From Gemmatimonadales bacterium (lineage in GTDB: Bacteria > Gemmatimonadota > Gemmatimonadetes > Gemmatimonadales > GWC2-71-9), in NCBI GenBank assembly GCA_041741375.1, contig JBGSKF010000241.1, forward strand, positions 1,878 to 65,877: a stretch of DNA of 64,000 nucleotides, read 5' to 3'. Under the pieces are notes generated by a model. The model was given only the letters and a program-made list of their open reading frames with translations, ran no database searches and was not told the DNA's origin. A program made the position numbers and the translations under genes. Below are positions 4,570-40,893 of this stretch, piece by piece. Every line of letters begins with the position of its first letter. Position 1 is the first letter of the stretch.

Positions 4570-4618
4570 GGACCTAGGACATAGGACATAGGACATAGGA
4601 CATAGGGCAGAGGCCCGT
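4570..4618. repeat. Heptamer tandem array, GGACATA type (left arm of cassette A)
   Basis: Read directly: GGACCTA GGACATA GGACATA GGACATA GGACATA GGGCAGA GGCCCGT. It starts 14 nt after the tyrA stop and ends 2 nt before the stop of the 4HB gene. Confidence 0.9.
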
Positions 4619-4620
4619 CC

Positions 4621-5037
4621 TTAGCTCCTGCGGGATCTCCGGCGGAGTGCTCCCAGCATCTTCCCCACCTCATCCATCAGGCCCCGGACGTGGACGGTGT
4701 CCTTGTTGGCGAGAAATCCCACCTGCTCGCACAGCTCCAGGAGTGTTTCCACCTCTGCCAAAGAGCCGTGGGCAATGGCCAGAAACTGAGCCCGCTCGCG
4801 GACGGATTCGCGGACCCACCCTTCCGCAATGTTCGCGGGAACGGACGCCGCGGCACGGGTGATTTGCGACCGGAGACCATAGACCTCCTCCGTCGGGAGA
4901 CGTGGGGCCATGCGATAGATGTCCGTCGCCACGTCCATGGCTTTGCGCCAGACGGTCAACTTGCGGTAGTACAGGCCCACGAAGGCATCCTCTGTCTGGG
5001 GTGCATCCCAGACTACACATCGCCTTGAATTCTGCAT
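4621..5037 (-). CDS. Four-helix-bundle protein (23S rRNA intervening-sequence protein family, PF05635/TIGR02436-like)
   Basis: ORF 4621..5082. Start moved to ATG 5037 (MQNSRR...). Family hallmarks: YRKLTVWRKAMDVATDIYR, GLRSQITRAAASVPANIAEG, AHGSLAEVETLLELC. Confidence 0.8.
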   Translation of the reverse strand: MQNSRRCVVWDAPQTEDAFVGLYYRKLTVWRKAMDVATDIYRMAPRLPTEEVYGLRSQITRAAASVPANIAEGWVRESVRERAQFLAIAHGSLAEVETLLELCEQVGFLANKDTVHVRGLMDEVGKMLGALRRRSRRS

Positions 5038-5101
5038 GATCCATCCATGACATCCTGTCACGGCAGGTCGTGGATTTCCCACCAGATCGCGGATCCCGCG
5101 C

Positions 5102-5172
5102 GTCCCTATGTCCTCTGTCCTCTGTTGTCCTATGTCCTCCCTCTTGTCCTACGTCCTCTGTCCTATCCTGTC
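5102..5172. repeat. Degenerate heptamer array, TGTCCTN/TATGTCC type (right arm of cassette A, inverted relative to 4570-4618)
   Basis: GTCC cores at 5102, 5110, 5117, 5127, 5134, 5147, 5153 and 5160, mostly spaced 6-8 nt apart. The units are the reverse complement of GGACATA/GGACAGA. Confidence 0.85.
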
Positions 5173-10904: not shown

Positions 10905-10914
10905 CGCGCACCCC

Positions 10915-11046
10915 GTAGGGGCGAATTAAATTCGCCCATGGCATGATAGCCGAGCGCTCGTAGGGGCGAATAACATTCGCCCGTGGCCTGGTAGCAAGCG
11001 CCCGTGGGGCGAATCACATTCGCCCATCGCATGACGACCGGACACC
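10915..11046. repeat. Three tandem ~44-bp repeats, each with an 8-bp-stem hairpin (REP-like)
   Basis: Units start at 10915, 10960 and 11004. Consensus: GTAGGGGCGAAT-NNN-ATTCGCCCRTGGCMTGRTAGC... Hairpins GGGCGAAT/ATTCGCCC lie at 10919-10937, 10964-10982 and 11007-11025. Confidence 0.85.
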
Positions 11047-32523: not shown

Positions 32524-32985
32524 ATGGCCCTGAACATCGCCCTCATCGAGCCGCAGATCCCGCCGAATACCGGAAACATCGCGCGCCTGTGCGCTGCCAC
32601 CGGAACCGGCCTCCACCTGATCGGTCCGCTCGGCTTTTCGCTCGACTCCGCGGACGTTCTGCGGGCCGGGCTCGACTACTGGGATGCGGTCGACCTCTGG
32701 CCCCATGCACACTGGCGCGAGTTCCGCGAGGCGATCTCCCGGGAGCGCTGCCTGTACTTTTCCGCGCGGGCCACCGTCCCCTTCTGGAACGCTCGCTTCA
32801 CACCGACCAGCTGCCTCGTCTTCGGGAACGAGACCGATGGGATGCCGGAGCGGATCCTGGAAAAGCATCCGGAACGGTGCTTCCGGATTCCCATGTCCGG
32901 TCCGGTTCGAAGCCTCAACCTGGCCACGGCGGCGGGGATCGTGCTGTACGAAGCGCTCCGGCAAACGGGAGGGAGTGGGGGGTAG
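32524..32985 (+). CDS. trmL: tRNA (cytidine/uridine-2'-O)-methyltransferase (SpoU/TrmL)
   Basis: Motifs: IALIEPQIPPNTGNIARLCAATG, LVFGNETDGMP, SLNLATAAGIVLYEA. The last six codons lie inside a heptamer array. Confidence 0.85.
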   Translation: MALNIALIEPQIPPNTGNIARLCAATGTGLHLIGPLGFSLDSADVLRAGLDYWDAVDLWPHAHWREFREAISRERCLYFSARATVPFWNARFTPTSCLVFGNETDGMPERILEKHPERCFRIPMSGPVRSLNLATAAGIVLYEALRQTGGSGG

Positions 32986-33008
32986 GGAGTCGGGAGTAAG
33001 GGACGACG
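32967..33008. repeat. Degenerate purine-rich heptamer array (left arm of cassette B)
   Basis: GGGAGGG AGTGGGG GGTAGGG AGTCGGG AGTAAGG GACGACG. It is partially complementary to GTCCTAC units (with G-U pairs). It overlaps the trmL 3' end. Confidence 0.6.
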
Positions 33009-33068
33009 CGTGCGTCGCCCCTGCCCCGGATGGAAACGACTGCCGATTGGCGGTCGAGGCGAATCCAT

Positions 33069-33173
33069 GTCCTACGTCCTACGTCCTACGTCCTACGTCC
33101 TACGTCCTACGTCCTACGTCCTACGTCCTACGTCCTACGTCCTACGTCCTACGTCCGATGTCCTATGTCCCGG
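33069..33173. repeat. Heptamer tandem array (GTCCTAC)x12 perfect plus 3 degenerate units (right arm of cassette B)
   Basis: Counted directly. Perfect 7-nt periodicity runs from 33069 to 33152, then GTCCGAT, GTCCTAT, GTCCCGG. Confidence 0.95.
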
Positions 33174-33176
33174 CTT

Positions 33177-33205
33177 CCCCCTCTCCCACTCTGTGGGAGA
33201 GGGGG
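33177..33205 (-). terminator. Strong hairpin downstream of the TonB-receptor gene (no U-tract)
   Basis: CCCCCTCTCCCAC (33177-33189), loop TCT, GTGGGAGAGGGGG (33193-33205): a 13-bp perfect stem, 23 nt after the stop at 33228. Confidence 0.4.
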
Positions 33206-33227
33206 GCAGGGGTGATGGCACCTAGCT

Positions 33228-36200
33228 CTAGAAGATGTACCGCAGGCCGAGCTGGGCCTGCCGGGGCTCTCCCAGGCCGCTTCGCACCGTCCCGTCAAAG
33301 TTCAGAAAGAGGCCCTGCGACGACGGATCCTTGAAATTGTCGGCGTTGGTGATGTTGAACACCTCGAACACCGCCTCGATCGTGCCCCCGGCACTGCGGA
33401 ACGGTCGTGAGATGCGGATGTCCCACGCGAAGGTGGCGTTGTCCTTGCGCAGGGTGTTGCGCTTGAGGATGGTCCCGTCGGTACAGATGCGGTCCTGAGG
33501 CCCGACGGCCCGTTCCCCGCTGGGCCGATTGTTCACACACTTCTCGGACGTCGGCTGTGCCGACGAAAAGGACATCCGGTTGTTCAGGAAAATGTCGCCA
33601 GGGATCCGGGCCAGGAGCCACGCATTGAGCCGATGGCGCTGATCGCGGTCGCTCCAGTTGAACTCGGGGCCCAGGTTGTCGGCCCGGGCGTAGCGGAAGC
33701 TGAACGGATCCCGCTCGTTGTCATCGTCCGACTTGTCGAAGGACACGGTGTAATTCACCTGAAACTGGAAGTCGCGGTGGAGCATCTGCTTGAGTCCGGC
33801 GGTGAATCCGTTGTAGCGTGACCGGGCGCTGCTCTCGACCACGGTGAGAACTCCGACGCCGTTGCCCCCGGGCAGACCGGTGGCCCAGGGCGAACCGAAA
33901 ACCGGATCATTGCGATCGATGAACCGGGTCAGATTGTCGGTCCGGGCATGCGTGTAGCTCAGGCTCGCCGCCACGCCTCCCCCCACTTCTCTTTCGTACG
34001 CAACGGTCGCGCTGAAGGTGCGGGGGTTCTCGAAGTCCTTGTCGAACACGAAGACTCCCGGCTGAAAGGGTGCCCCGGTCGGCGTGGGGAGAAGCTCCCC
34101 GTAGTTCGGCGGTGCGCCGAGGATCCCGGTCAGGGCACTGTTCCGGAAGATGGTCTGCCCGATCGAACCGTTGGTGCTCCTCGTGCTGGCCAGGTTCAGT
34201 CCGGGGGTGCGCGCGTAGTAGAGCCCCGCGCTGGCGCGCAGCACCTGACGGGAGTCCCCGTTGACGTCCCACGCAATGCCGAACCGGGGCTGGAACATCG
34301 AGTAGTCCGAGGGAATCCCCCCGTCCGATGGGAAGGCGAAGGTGCCCTGCTGGTTGGAGACAGTTTGTCCAATGAAAGGCGCGAAGAACACGTCCTCCGC
34401 CGGGGTGATGGGATCGGGCTGGATCTGGGCTTCCCAGCGCACCCCGTAGTCAATGGTCACGTTCGGGTGCGGCTTCCAGCTGTCCTGCAGGAAGAGGGCG
34501 AGCTCGTTCTGGGTGATGGACTGGGTGCCGGACTGCTCCACCGTCAAGCCCCCGACGCCCGCCTGCTGCAGATAGAGCACAACGGGTCCGGTGATCTCCG
34601 TCCCGGCCGGGCACGATCCCGTGGTGGACGAAGATCCGTTGGAACACTCGACATAGCCGTTGCCCAGGCGCACGAAGTTCAGGAACCCATCCACGGAACT
34701 GAACGCCATCCTTCCGTTGCCGAACCCGACGAAGGTCTGCTTGACATTGGTCCGGTTCCACTCCGCACCAAACTTGAACAGATGGTTCCCCTCCACCACG
34801 GAGATGTTGTTCAGAACCTGGAACCGGGTATCATGGGCCTCGACCGGGAGGAAGAACGGCATCCCGATCCGGAACCCGGTGAACGAAATGTCGGTATCGG
34901 GGAAGGGCCGGCCGGTGCGGGGGTTGACGGGCCCGTCATAGGGGCGGGGGCGTTCCTCCCGGGCCCACTGAAAGCGGAACTCGTTGAAGACGGTGGACGA
35001 GAGCACCGAATTGAGGCTTCCGTTGATCGCGTGGGAAAAATCCCTCTCGAGACCGTTGGCACTCCGACCCCAGAGATCCACATCGAACGTGCCGTTCTCC
35101 TGGCGCGAGTTCGTGTAGTTGTACTTGAGACTGGCGTTGTTCCGGTCATCGAGCCGGACGTCCACCTTGGCCATGAGCGCATTGGCGTCGTTGGTGCGCT
35201 TGATCGCTCCGAAGTCGCCTTGGAGAGCCCCACCAAAGGCCGTGTCGGTGAAGGCCCGGAGAGCGGGGTCGATCAAGGAGATGCGGTCCTGTTGCTTGGT
35301 GGAATTGAATTCCTGCTGGTCGTATGCCACGAAGAAAAAGGCCCGGTCCCGCACGATCGGCCCCCCGAATGTCAGGCCGAACTGGTGCTGAGTAAAGTCG
35401 GGCTCGAATCCGCGAAAGTTCGGATTCTCGGTGCTGAAGTCCTTGGACAGTCCATCGTACTTCCCGAAATAGTGTGCTGTACCCCGGAACTCATTGGTGC
35501 CCGATTTGGTGATCACATTGACGAAGCCACCTCCCGAGCGACCGAACTCCGCGTTGGCTCCCTGGGAGACCACCACGATTTCCTGGATCGCGTCCAGGTT
35601 GAACGTGAACGCCGGTCGTTGACCTCCGCGCTGTTCCCCGAAGAAGGGGTTGTTGAAATCGGCCCCGTCCACGCTCACGTTGTTGTGGATGCCCCGCTGT
35701 CCCCCGATCGTGAGCTCATCCCCATCGGGGCCCTGGACGATCCCGACGTTGGGGGTGAGCAGAGTGAGATTCAGGAAGTTGCGGCCATTATTGGGGAGCC
35801 CCGCCACCACTTGCGGTTCCAGGCGGGTGGCCGAGGCGACCCGGGTGGGATCCACCACCGGCTCCGACACGGCAACCGTGAGATCCGCCAGTTGCACGGT
35901 CACCGGGACCAGCCGGAAATCCACCTGCAGGACCTCACCCAGTCGAAGAGTCAGGCCCTCCCGCCGGGTGGCCTGGTAACCCACCAGGCGGGCCGTGGCC
36001 GTGTACCCCCCGACCCGCAGCAGGGACCCGACGAAGATCCCCCGGGAATTGGTGGTCACGGTCCGCTCCGCGTTGGTCTCGAGATTCCGGAGCACCACCT
36101 GGGCCCCGGGCAGCGGATTCCCCGCCGAGTCGGAGACGATGCCGCGGATCACGCCCGTGGTCGCCTGGGACTGCGCCATCAGCCGGGTGGGAACGACACT

Positions 36201-36266
36201 GCCAAGGAGGAACAGACAACACCAGAACCCTGCACGAACCGGCTGCCACCGCGAAGACGTGCGCAT
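33228..36266 (-). CDS. TonB-dependent receptor with an N-terminal carboxypeptidase-regulatory-like domain
   Basis: ORF 33228..36560. Start at ATG 36266 (MRTSSRWQPVRAGFWCCLFLLGS signal). TGVIRGIVSDSAGNPLPGAQVVLRN (CarboxypepD_reg), a plug, and a long beta-barrel ending AQLGLRYIF. Confidence 0.85.
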   Translation of the reverse strand: MRTSSRWQPVRAGFWCCLFLLGSVVPTRLMAQSQATTGVIRGIVSDSAGNPLPGAQVVLRNLETNAERTVTTNSRGIFVGSLLRVGGYTATARLVGYQATRREGLTLRLGEVLQVDFRLVPVTVQLADLTVAVSEPVVDPTRVASATRLEPQVVAGLPNNGRNFLNLTLLTPNVGIVQGPDGDELTIGGQRGIHNNVSVDGADFNNPFFGEQRGGQRPAFTFNLDAIQEIVVVSQGANAEFGRSGGGFVNVITKSGTNEFRGTAHYFGKYDGLSKDFSTENPNFRGFEPDFTQHQFGLTFGGPIVRDRAFFFVAYDQQEFNSTKQQDRISLIDPALRAFTDTAFGGALQGDFGAIKRTNDANALMAKVDVRLDDRNNASLKYNYTNSRQENGTFDVDLWGRSANGLERDFSHAINGSLNSVLSSTVFNEFRFQWAREERPRPYDGPVNPRTGRPFPDTDISFTGFRIGMPFFLPVEAHDTRFQVLNNISVVEGNHLFKFGAEWNRTNVKQTFVGFGNGRMAFSSVDGFLNFVRLGNGYVECSNGSSSTTGSCPAGTEITGPVVLYLQQAGVGGLTVEQSGTQSITQNELALFLQDSWKPHPNVTIDYGVRWEAQIQPDPITPAEDVFFAPFIGQTVSNQQGTFAFPSDGGIPSDYSMFQPRFGIAWDVNGDSRQVLRASAGLYYARTPGLNLASTRSTNGSIGQTIFRNSALTGILGAPPNYGELLPTPTGAPFQPGVFVFDKDFENPRTFSATVAYEREVGGGVAASLSYTHARTDNLTRFIDRNDPVFGSPWATGLPGGNGVGVLTVVESSARSRYNGFTAGLKQMLHRDFQFQVNYTVSFDKSDDDNERDPFSFRYARADNLGPEFNWSDRDQRHRLNAWLLARIPGDIFLNNRMSFSSAQPTSEKCVNNRPSGERAVGPQDRICTDGTILKRNTLRKDNATFAWDIRISRPFRSAGGTIEAVFEVFNITNADNFKDPSSQGLFLNFDGTVRSGLGEPRQAQLGLRYIF

Positions 36267-36478
36267 GCGTCGCTCCTGGAACGGGTGAAGGGATCCTGCC
36301 GGTCTATCGGATGAAGGACAAAGAGTATCGGACAGCCGACAGAACCGCAATGAGTCAGGATCGACGGCCTCCCGGGCTCCGCACCCGCGCGGTGGAGAAT
36401 CGGGCGGCATCCGATTAAACTGCATTACGTTTTGGCGGCATCCTGCGGGAGGCGACAACTTCATGACGTGGACATGAC

Positions 36479-37411
36479 ATGCTGAACAAGGTGACGGTGG
36501 TCGGTGCGGGCAACGTCGGGGCCACGGCCGCGCAGCGGGTGGCCGAAAAGCACCTGGCACGCGAGGTGATCCTGGTGGACGTTGTGGAGGGGATCCCCCA
36601 GGGCAAGGCGCTGGACCAGTGGCAGTCGGCTCCGGTCGAGGGGTTCGACGCCCGGGTCTACGGCAGCAATGACTACGAAATCGCGCGGGGGTCGGAGGTC
36701 TTCATCGTCACCGCGGGCATCGCCCGGAAGCCGGGGATGAGCCGGGATGACCTGGTCAAGACCAACGCGGGGATCGTGCGCTCGGTGTCCGAGCAGATCC
36801 GTCGTGTGGCCCCCGAGTCGATCATCATCGTCGTCTCGAACCCGCTTGATGCCATGTGCTATGTGGCCCGAACCGCCTCGGGATTTCCCCGCGAACGGGT
36901 GATCGGCATGGCTGGCGTGCTCGACACCGCCCGGTACCGGATGTTCCTGGCGGAGGCGATGCAGGTTTCCGTGGAGGATATCCAGGCCATGGTGCTCGGA
37001 GGCCATGGAGACACGATGGTGCCGCTGGTGTCCTATACCACGGTGAGTGGCATCCCGGTCTCCCAGCTGCTCAGCCCCGACGCGCTCGAGGCCATCGTCG
37101 CCCGCACCCGAAACGGCGGGGCGGAGATCGTGGGGCACTTGAAGACGGGCTCGGCCTACTACGCTCCCAGCGCCGCCGCTGTCCAGATGCTGGAGGCCAT
37201 CGCGCTCGACAAGAAGCGCATCCTGCCGGCCTCGGCCTGGCTGCAGGGGGAGTACGGCCTCCGGGATGTGTATTGCGGGGTGCCGGTCAAGCTCGGTCGC
37301 GCCGGCATCGAGGCGGTTCTGGAGGTGACCCTGACAGAGGATGAACGCCGGGATCTGCACGCCTCCGCCGAAGCGGTTCGGAGTGTCCAGCAGGTCATCG
37401 ACAACGGCTGA
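36479..37411 (+). CDS. mdh: Malate dehydrogenase (LDH-like type)
   Basis: Motifs: [38 protein letters not shown]. Confidence 0.9.
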
Positions 37412-40761: not shown

Positions 40762-40893
40762 GGAAGTTGGAAATCTGAAGTTTGAAGGAGGCCTGCCCCT
40801 CCCCGGATTGAACCGTCCCGATCTCGCTCCCGCGACATCGGCCCGAACTTACGACAGACTTCACACTTCGAATTTCACACTTCGAACTTCGTA
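40762..40893. repeat. ORF-less inverted heptamer-array cassette C (GAAGTTN arm, core, ACTTCNN arm)
   Basis: Left arm: GGAAGTT GGAAATC TGAAGTT TGAAGGA (40762-40789). Core: GCCTGCCCCTCCCCGGATTGAACCGTCCCGAT... Right arm: ACTTCAC ACTTCGA ATTTCAC ACTTCGA ACTTCGT (40858-40892). It fills the whole sdhB/dcd convergent gap. Confidence 0.85.

Follow-up and report, generated by a model that had tools for sequence, protein, structure and literature searches.

In a 64,000-nucleotide stretch of DNA from a soil Gemmatimonadales bacterium (hereafter the window, to which positions given without a contig name refer), trmL, the gene for a SpoU-family tRNA/rRNA methyltransferase, and a convergent gene for an outer-membrane receptor are separated by a spacer (32967-33227) that carries two arrays of heptanucleotide units, with a core between them, and a terminal hairpin. 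An initial annotation had described this region as a single cassette lacking a gene. We consider it probable that the whole spacer is a mosaic of ordinary intergenic repeats and not one cassette. The locus is a member of two known kinds of repeat, the heptameric intergenic simple sequence repeats (SSRs) and the GTAG-headed repetitive extragenic palindromes (REPs). This reading draws on what was observed of the anatomy of the spacer, of the families to which its parts belong, of a genome-wide rule of array orientation, and of a sister species in which the mosaic is kept and the number of repeat units has changed. The host genome is a metagenome-assembled genome (MAG) of 3.86 Mb, in 250 contigs, with 66.9% G+C.

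Anatomy of the trmL/receptor spacer

trmL (32524..32985, + strand; PF00588, 1.4e-32, residues 3-142 of 153) runs into the left array (32967..33003, + strand), a decayed array of the GTAGGGA/AGGGAGT type with about 4.7 units. The array was detected with Tandem Repeats Finder (TRF; 32970-33003, period 7, 4.7 copies, unit AGGGAGT) and with a regular expression for G-quadruplexes, so the purine-rich left array of the initial annotation is real. Direct reading of the open reading frame (ORF) also bore out that trmL takes its final codons and its stop from the array: the last six codons overlap the array, the TAG stop (32983-32985) lies inside it, and the protein ends in ...RQTGGSGG*. That the C-terminal tail and the stop of TrmL are dictated by the left array is the sole demonstrable effect of the locus on a gene; in practical terms, the annotated C-terminus and stop of TrmL depend on the array.

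The left array is followed, in register with it, by a hairpin module (33000..33039, + strand), GGGA-CGACGC-GT-GCGTCG-CCCC, with a degenerate GTAA(G) head and, after the hairpin, the tail motif CCCCTGCCCCGGATGGAAAC; it matched a profile built from 11 copies of the family described below as REP-A (nhmmer, 9e-11). Next to it, folding revealed a small second hairpin, CGACTGCC-GATT-GGCGGTCG, together with decayed units of the GGCGGTA type (33037..33068, + strand). This segment terminates in GAGGCGAATCCAT, which is similar to half of the hairpin of another family, REP-B, and at the equivalent position two other REP-A copies, on contigs C3 and C213, have GGGGCGAATCACATTCGCCC.

The right array (33069..33173) was read directly and by TRF (33069-33170, 14.6 copies, 96% matches). 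It consists of 12 perfect GTCCTAC units (33069-33152), as first reported, followed by the decayed units GTCCGAT, GTCCTAT and GTCCCGG; on the - strand, to which we assign it, the array reads (GTAGGAC)n. All three + strand frames through it are open, giving permutations of VLRPTSY, as had also been stated, and all three - strand frames meet a TAG every 21 nt. The spacer closes with a REP-C element (33177..33219, + strand), which comprises the perfect 13-bp stem of the initial annotation, CCCCCTCTCCCAC-TCT-GTGGGAGAGGGGG (33177-33205), and the tail CAGGGGTGATGGC. Beyond it lies the receptor gene (33228..36560, - strand), TonB-dependent-like, with matches to PF25183 (OMP beta-barrel, 1.8e-76) and PF13620 (CarboxypepD_reg, 3.3e-18) and with its TAG stop at 33228-33230. 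No Pfam family was matched by any ORF running through the spacer (ORFs across 32679-33334), in line with the earlier view that the region holds no credible ORF.

Orientation of the heptamer arrays

Array orientation was counted against our own crude gene calls, which are based on G+C at third codon positions (GC3; 3145 genes, 83% coding). In convergent gaps, arrays of the TAGG type lay sense to the nearest gene at a ratio of 72:5, and solo arrays of this type in tandem gaps were sense at 52:10. Arrays of the TAGG type in divergent gaps showed no orientation bias (13:18). All 12 classifiable arrays of the GTAGGAC family were sense to the upstream gene (12:0). In the GGGTGTT arrays, whose unit contains no stop triplet, the G-rich strand was again the sense strand (15:2). 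Stop codons are thereby ruled out as the sole cause of the sense bias, and the rule is that the G-rich strand lies on the sense side, not that stop codons do so as such. A bias imposed by the direction of replication is also ruled out, because the two arrays of one convergent gap point opposite ways.

Both arrays of the spacer follow this rule. GTAGGGA lies on the + strand behind trmL, the stop of which the left array overlaps, and GTAGGAC on the - strand behind the receptor gene, the right array beginning 54 nt past the receptor stop. The initial annotation had viewed the two as complementary arms that can pair at 6 of 7 positions per unit. The count was reproduced (five Watson-Crick pairs and one G-U pair) and applies to + strand RNA only. 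This complementarity arises because both units are RTAGGNN read from opposite strands and, since GTAGGAC is sense in every classifiable array, the complementary arms are best taken as two independent sense-oriented arrays. The right array would then belong to the convergent receptor gene and would look like an arm only through the genome-wide sense rule.

The core is a copy of a dispersed REP module

Going by sequence similarity, the core between the arrays represents a single copy of a REP hairpin module that is headed by GTAG and specific to the genus, and which we named REP-A. The consensus of the family is (GGGAGTA)n-GTAGGGG-CGACGC[AT or GCCA]GCGTCG-CCCGAGCNCCAGGTGGAAAC-(GGCGGTA)n: the head runs on into the GTAGGGA array, and 3' of the hairpin the conserved tail CCCGAGCNCCAGGTGGAAAC is followed by GTAGGCG units. 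A nhmmer profile together with BLAST recovered 11 full-length and about 12 partial copies (E down to 2.5e-13). GTAG stands on one side of the hairpin in 10 of 13 copies and on both sides in none; the copy in the window has a degenerate head, GTAAGGGA (GTAA), and decayed GGCGGT units. In its exact form, GGGCGACGC-N2-4-GCGTCGCCC, the hairpin occurs 13 times in this genome; of two other genomes from the genus, that of the sister species G002 considered below has 37 occurrences and the second has 6. Outside the genus, a single copy was found in 1 of 38 other relatives and none in the remaining 37. From these counts we conclude that REP-A is a genus-specific family whose copy number differs by species. 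At least 15 of about 17 REP-A modules lie directly behind the stop of a co-oriented gene, and at four copies (on C70, C151, C3 and C211), as at trmL, a TAG stop falls inside the array.

A likeness between the core and 40794-40822 had been proposed from a hand alignment with 25 of 31 columns identical. That number was reproduced, but the similarity is statistically marginal: the local score was 17, 1500 random intergenic segments scored 10.3 +/- 2.0 with 0.6% of them reaching 17, and in a genome-wide BLAST search the match had E = 4.9, tied with matches inside genes. Far better relatives of the core lie on other contigs of the genome (BLAST E down to 2e-7). The string CCRGRTKGARMC was rejected as a general cassette-core motif: it had 90 matches, against 31 in the reversed genome, with only 7 near arrays, 4 being REP-A.

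REP-A modules may also stand next to one another or to other repeats. In G002 (C22:54800-54983), three REP-A hairpins occur at an exact spacing of 81 bp, the whole module being reiterated in tandem. A dispersed repeat of 190-350 bp adjoins a REP-A copy of the present genome (G000) at C188:4770-5124 (L110:670-1024). It has about 45 copies in G002, several of them at contig ends, and has the look of a miniature inverted-repeat transposable element; at the C188/L110 locus, G002 is about 720 bp longer.

The terminal hairpin is likewise a dispersed repeat. Its family, REP-C, is distinct from REP-A and comprises about 20 copies (BLAST E down to 1e-9) of the form CCCCTCTCCC[A/G]C-loop-G[T/C]GGGAGAGGGG, followed by the tail CAGGGGTGAGGGC. 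Of 13 aligned rows with 3-nt loops, 6 have A-T and 7 have G-C as the penultimate pair of the stem, and none is mismatched; as judged from this alignment, the change in the stem is compensated. REP-C copies occur in every type of gap, including gaps called divergent by the crude gene calls. Elsewhere in the window, a 45-bp tandem repeat (10912-11034, 2.8 copies) has a unit that holds a GTAG-headed REP-B hairpin, CCCGTAGGGGCGAATAACATTCGCCC; here a REP has been reiterated in tandem together with its spacer.

Conservation and remodelling in a sister species

G002 belongs to the same genus, its TrmL is 98% identical, and its orthologous convergent gap contains the same mosaic. REP-A is kept, and REP-C is kept with one change in the loop. 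A clean GGCGGTA array, GGCGGTAGGCGATGGGCGGTAGGCGGT, occupies the place of the decayed units of the window. The left array has 3 units, compared with about 4.7 here, and because the left arrays differ the trmL frame of G002 is 23 codons longer and extends to a TAG in the GGCGGTA array. The right array has 9 units, in which GTCCTAC and GTCCTAT are mixed (C or T at position 7), compared with 15 here, 12 perfect and 3 decayed. Thus, the expectation of the initial annotation that the number of units would vary holds between these two species.

The REP-A module is present in both species at three other orthologous loci. With the trmL locus counted, the two species have different numbers of units at 3 of the 4 orthologous REP-A loci; one gap has been rebuilt in its interior. 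We also compared 20 further REP-A loci of G002 with this genome. One of the 20 is a clean case of presence and absence: in G002 (L140, C50:17900-19600) an 80-nt REP-A module lies inside a CCTACCG/GTAGGCG array, and the GTAGGCG array is uninterrupted in the counterpart in this genome (C69:7700-7770). At two more of the 20 (L125/C71 and L143/C112), the array is conserved and the REP-type elements 3' of it are wholly different. These two loci, L125 (G002 C3:124400-126000, C71:2375-2930 in this genome) and L143 (C112:2310-2790 in this genome), have the same flanking genes and a conserved or similar leading array in the two species. The filling in G002 is four tandem REP-A-like modules at one locus or one REP-A at the other, and in this genome three tandem repeats of about 150 nt or an element of about 300 nt with REP-B and (GTCCTAC)4.

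Alternative explanations

Several observations weigh against a mosaic of independent repeats. Our gene calls are crude, so that the orientation counts carry some error, and a gene for a REP-associated tyrosine transposase (RAYT) flanked by REP-A copies was not found in the genome. The head-in order TAGG...CCTA is preferred also in tandem gaps (13 '+-' pairs versus 1 '-+'), which also account for 10 of the 21 '+-' pairs whose arrays come from different families. Because head-in order dominates tandem gaps too, some intrinsic pairing architecture exists, and this locus is possibly an instance of it. Moreover, in the minimum free energy (MFE) structure of the + strand the left array base-pairs with the distal end of the right array. 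The spacer could on these grounds be one hairpin cassette, either REPIN-like or a four-helix-bundle cassette without its gene, whose arms pair in single-stranded DNA or RNA and which moves or functions as one unit; the 6 of 7 pairable positions, G-U included, and the location of all four PF05635 genes of the genome between inverted arrays point the same way. We nevertheless think this unlikely. The arms come from different families (GTAGGGA and GTAGGAC) and are unbalanced, with 4.7 versus 14.6 units here and 3 versus 9 in G002. The folding suggested in the initial annotation did return arm-to-arm pairing in the MFE structure, but the ensemble frequency of that structure is only 0.0004, the pairing is missing from the centroid, and z is about -2 on both strands; the stable elements of the fold are the local hairpins. 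A GTCCTAY partner array is missing at most other REP-A copies. A REPIN would need an inverted second copy of REP-A, and there is none at the locus, where the reverse-strand nhmmer match is the palindrome itself. The further proposal that the spacer is a gene-less derivative of a cassette at 4570-5172 did not survive, since by BLAST that cassette has no sequence in common with the core outside the heptamer units.

Under the mosaic reading, transcripts of both genes probably extend into these structures, which may serve as generic stabilisers of 3' ends or as terminators. A separate explanation is a function selected at the RNA level; the initial annotation had supposed a bidirectional terminator or processing site. 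The spacer might then be a selected bidirectional terminator or RNA 3'-end protector in which a G-quadruplex of the left array is helped by the hairpins of REP-A and REP-C. In its favour, such roles have been proposed for REPs (PMC3733652) and for G-rich heptamers (PMC4692102), a regular expression finds the canonical motif (G3+N1-7)x4 in the left array (32967-33002) on the sense strand of trmL, stable local hairpins lie 3' of both stops, and REP-C has its compensated stem pair. We judge this decidedly improbable, however. Sites with a stem plus U-tract, the mark of an intrinsic terminator, number 0 on both strands across 32800-33400, and a scan for terminators and promoters returned nothing. 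The G-quadruplex reading does not cover the 12-copy array, because the GTAGGAC unit has GG runs only and no GGG tract, which makes a three-tetrad quadruplex impossible there; only the left array fits the motif. REP-C also occurs in gaps called divergent (by the crude gene calls), the interiors of orthologous gaps are freely remodelled between the sister species, and Rehm et al. saw no regulatory role for such repeats (PMC4692102). In Rfam, the best match reached 24.6 bits against a gathering score of 55 and was that of an animal miRNA model to the bare hairpin. It also seems very unlikely that the perfect 12-copy run is in part an assembly artefact, short reads having led to a wrong copy number. 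The copy number of 12 comes from the assembly alone, that of a MAG in 250 contigs; three Logan contigs (k = 31, three runs, identical TrmL) all end 31 nt into the array and confirm its flanks, not its copy number. Because short-read assemblies break at the array, it is one reason for the fragmentation of the MAG. On the other side, the array is present with identical flanks in three independent runs, the assembly of the other species has a diverged 9-unit version, and the 84-bp run and its flanks can be spanned by 150-nt reads. Scarcely credible, finally, is a contingency locus in which slippage of the 7-mer switches the expression or the protein form of the receptor or of TrmL (phase variation). 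The repeat is long and perfect, its unit is not a multiple of 3, it adjoins a gene for a surface receptor, and the TrmL tail differs by 23 residues between the species through the left array. Yet both genes end before they reach the 12-copy array, the receptor gene 54 nt from it, so that the array can shift no reading frame or promoter; hundreds of arrays stand behind housekeeping genes, and a TAG in all sense-strand frames limits any change to the tail of the protein.

A possible coupling between arrays and REP heads

For the hairpins of five families (REP-A, B, D, F and G), there are 27 cases of an array directly bordering the GTAG-head side and 3 of one bordering the tail side. This excess supports the view that arrays and REP heads are physically coupled, whichever of the two came first. 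A perfect hairpin of at least 7 bp was found 3' of TAGG arrays in 34 of 310 cases and 5' of them in 2 of 310. The mean folding energy of the flanks was -11.8 kcal/mol on the 3' side versus -10.8 kcal/mol on the 5' side, a marginal difference (Wilcoxon p = 0.06), and very stable flanks (<= -20 kcal/mol) made up 12.7% of the 3' and 2.9% of the 5' flanks. The raw count of TAGG-headed perfect hairpins, 164 versus 247 in a reversed-genome control, was uninformative.

The genome has five Y1_Tnp matches, one of which scored best against the RAYT model NF047646 (67 bits, below the 80-bit cut-off). GTAG hairpins near 3 of the 5 Y1 genes belong to REP families other than REP-A. A RAYT-like Y1 gene at C24:16017-16759, whose best NCBIfam model is NF047646 at a score under the cut-off, has a GTAG-headed hairpin, GTAGGTGCGCCGTGTGCGGCGCACC, directly after its stop. 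REP-A may be, or may have been, mobilised by a Y1 (RAYT-like) transposase and may land in or beside heptamer arrays. It is possible, although we regard it as doubtful, that arrays and GTAG REPs are mechanistically coupled, the TAGG arrays being either landing pads, as repeated sites of targeting or cleavage, for small REP modules that RAYT-like Y1 transposases move, or stutter products of that reaction. The in-register abutment at 27:3, the insertion seen at L140/C69 and the retention of arrays while the REP elements 3' of them were swapped are consistent with such a coupling. If it is true, a Y1-transposase system, and not plain polymerase slippage, would have left these hundreds of arrays as its footprint, and a Y1 transposase, if responsible, would explain the excess of 7-nt repeats long noted in some bacteria. 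This is the only part of the locus that might lead somewhere new.

Comparison with known repeats

Heptameric SSRs have been described in Xanthomonas (GGGAATC) and Nostoc (GGGGA(C/T)T), where they are found on the sense strand no more than 50 bp from the stop, seldom occur between divergent ORFs and differ among close relatives (Rehm 2015, PMC4692102); other heptamer repeats are the short tandemly repeated repetitive (STRR) sequences of cyanobacteria and TAACTGA of the Beggiatoaceae (MacGregor 2015, PMC4679880). The arrays studied here agree with the heptameric SSRs in that units of 7 nt are repeated in tandem, that the repeats number in the hundreds per genome and lie mostly outside coding sequence, and that the G-rich strand is sense near the stop. 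They are likewise rare between divergent genes and occupy the same sites in close relatives with different numbers of units; inverted pairs occur, and the forward orientation has stops in three frames while the reverse is open. They differ in their Gemmatimonadota host, in the coexistence of many unit families (GTAGGGA, RTAGGAC, GTAGGCG, TGAACAA, GGGTGTT and others) and in being often fused in register to the heads of GTAG REPs.

GTAG REPs can supply stop codons to upstream ORFs (Di Nocera 2013, PMC3733652). Compared with the GTAG REPs and their RAYTs (PMC3733652; Bertels & Rainey 2011, PMC3116915), REP-A is similarly a GC-rich palindrome of 20-22 nt, with an unpaired GTAG on one side in 10 of 13 copies. 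It is likewise dispersed, extragenic, found behind co-oriented genes and lineage-specific, with a copy number that varies between sister species; its head region can give an upstream ORF its TAG, and the genome contains Y1 genes. In contrast to those elements, REP-A has a head that passes without a break into a GTAGGGA array, and 3' of its hairpin come a conserved tail of 20 nt, CCCGAGCNCCAGGTGGAAAC, and GTAGGCG units. The copy in the window moreover has GTAA as its head, no RAYT with flanking REP-A copies was found, and there is no REPIN-style inverted doublet at the locus.

The spacer also bears some resemblance to the four-helix-bundle cassettes of PF05635/TIGR02436 ('23S rRNA intervening-sequence protein'), such as the one at 4570-5172, in that TAGG...CCTA arrays flank a short unique intergenic segment. 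It differs in having no gene, in having arms of different families and very unequal length, and in sharing no sequence outside the arrays with the cassette at 4570-5172. PF05635 has four matches in the genome, none at the locus, and the arms of each of these four cassettes are of the same family and of similar length, with 5.4/8.4, 4.7/4.4, 6.9/5.7 and 5.0/4.6 units. The genes lie at C241:6528-6842, C151:57666-57983, C40:299-538 and C140:4069-4242, with the units ATAGGAC, GTAGGCG, TGAACAA and GAGTGAG, respectively; the copy on C140 contains an in-frame TGA.

The locus should not be annotated as the remnant of a gene cassette, as a small RNA or as a dedicated regulator. By itself it has little significance, being a typical example of known intergenic repeats in a poorly studied phylum. 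The broader pattern is one of sense-strand arrays placed behind genes and head-on to GTAG REPs, with REP modules that are present or absent inside the arrays between sister species.

Heptamer arrays in this genome and in relatives

Perfect heptamer arrays with 3 or more units number 301 in the genome. TRF reported 959 rows of period 7, far above every other period, which together cover 37 kb; the 12-copy array is therefore not special in this genome, and its run of GTCCTAC units is the joint third-longest perfect heptamer run. The commonest unit family is AGGGAGT (154 rows), followed by ATAGGAC (73), GTAGGCG (60), GGGTGTT (53) and TGAACAA (39). A genome-wide count of the right-array unit, as had been proposed, gave 23 TRF rows for GTAGGAC (the reverse complement of GTCCTAC). 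By our own gene calls, arrays are denser in convergent gaps (1.64 per kb) than in divergent gaps (0.70 per kb). The arrays would lengthen and shorten through replication slippage, and the 12 identical units probably represent a recent expansion in this lineage.

Among 301 sampled Gemmatimonadota genomes, (GTAGGGA)x3 was found in 12; it occurs 136 times in the present genome and 18, 14 and 12 times in the next three. In named genomes, the closest relatives of TrmL all come from MAGs of Gemmatimonadales or Gemmatimonadota (66-77% identity), and a metagenome scan returned no strain-level relative of TrmL, the best identity being 79%. Exact tandem heptamer duplications directly follow trmL in 9 of 90 trmL relatives, and in about six of the nine they amount to clear arrays with different units, among them GACTCGT, GACTGGT and GTGAGAG. 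On six metagenome contigs from other Gemmatimonadales (L031, L033, L035, L038, L039 and L040), trmL is followed in tandem by mdh, and the same six contigs carry arrays of these TGA-containing units (GACTCGT, GACTGGT, GTGAGAG). One of them, L039, has an inverted pair, GTGAGAG...TCACCTG.

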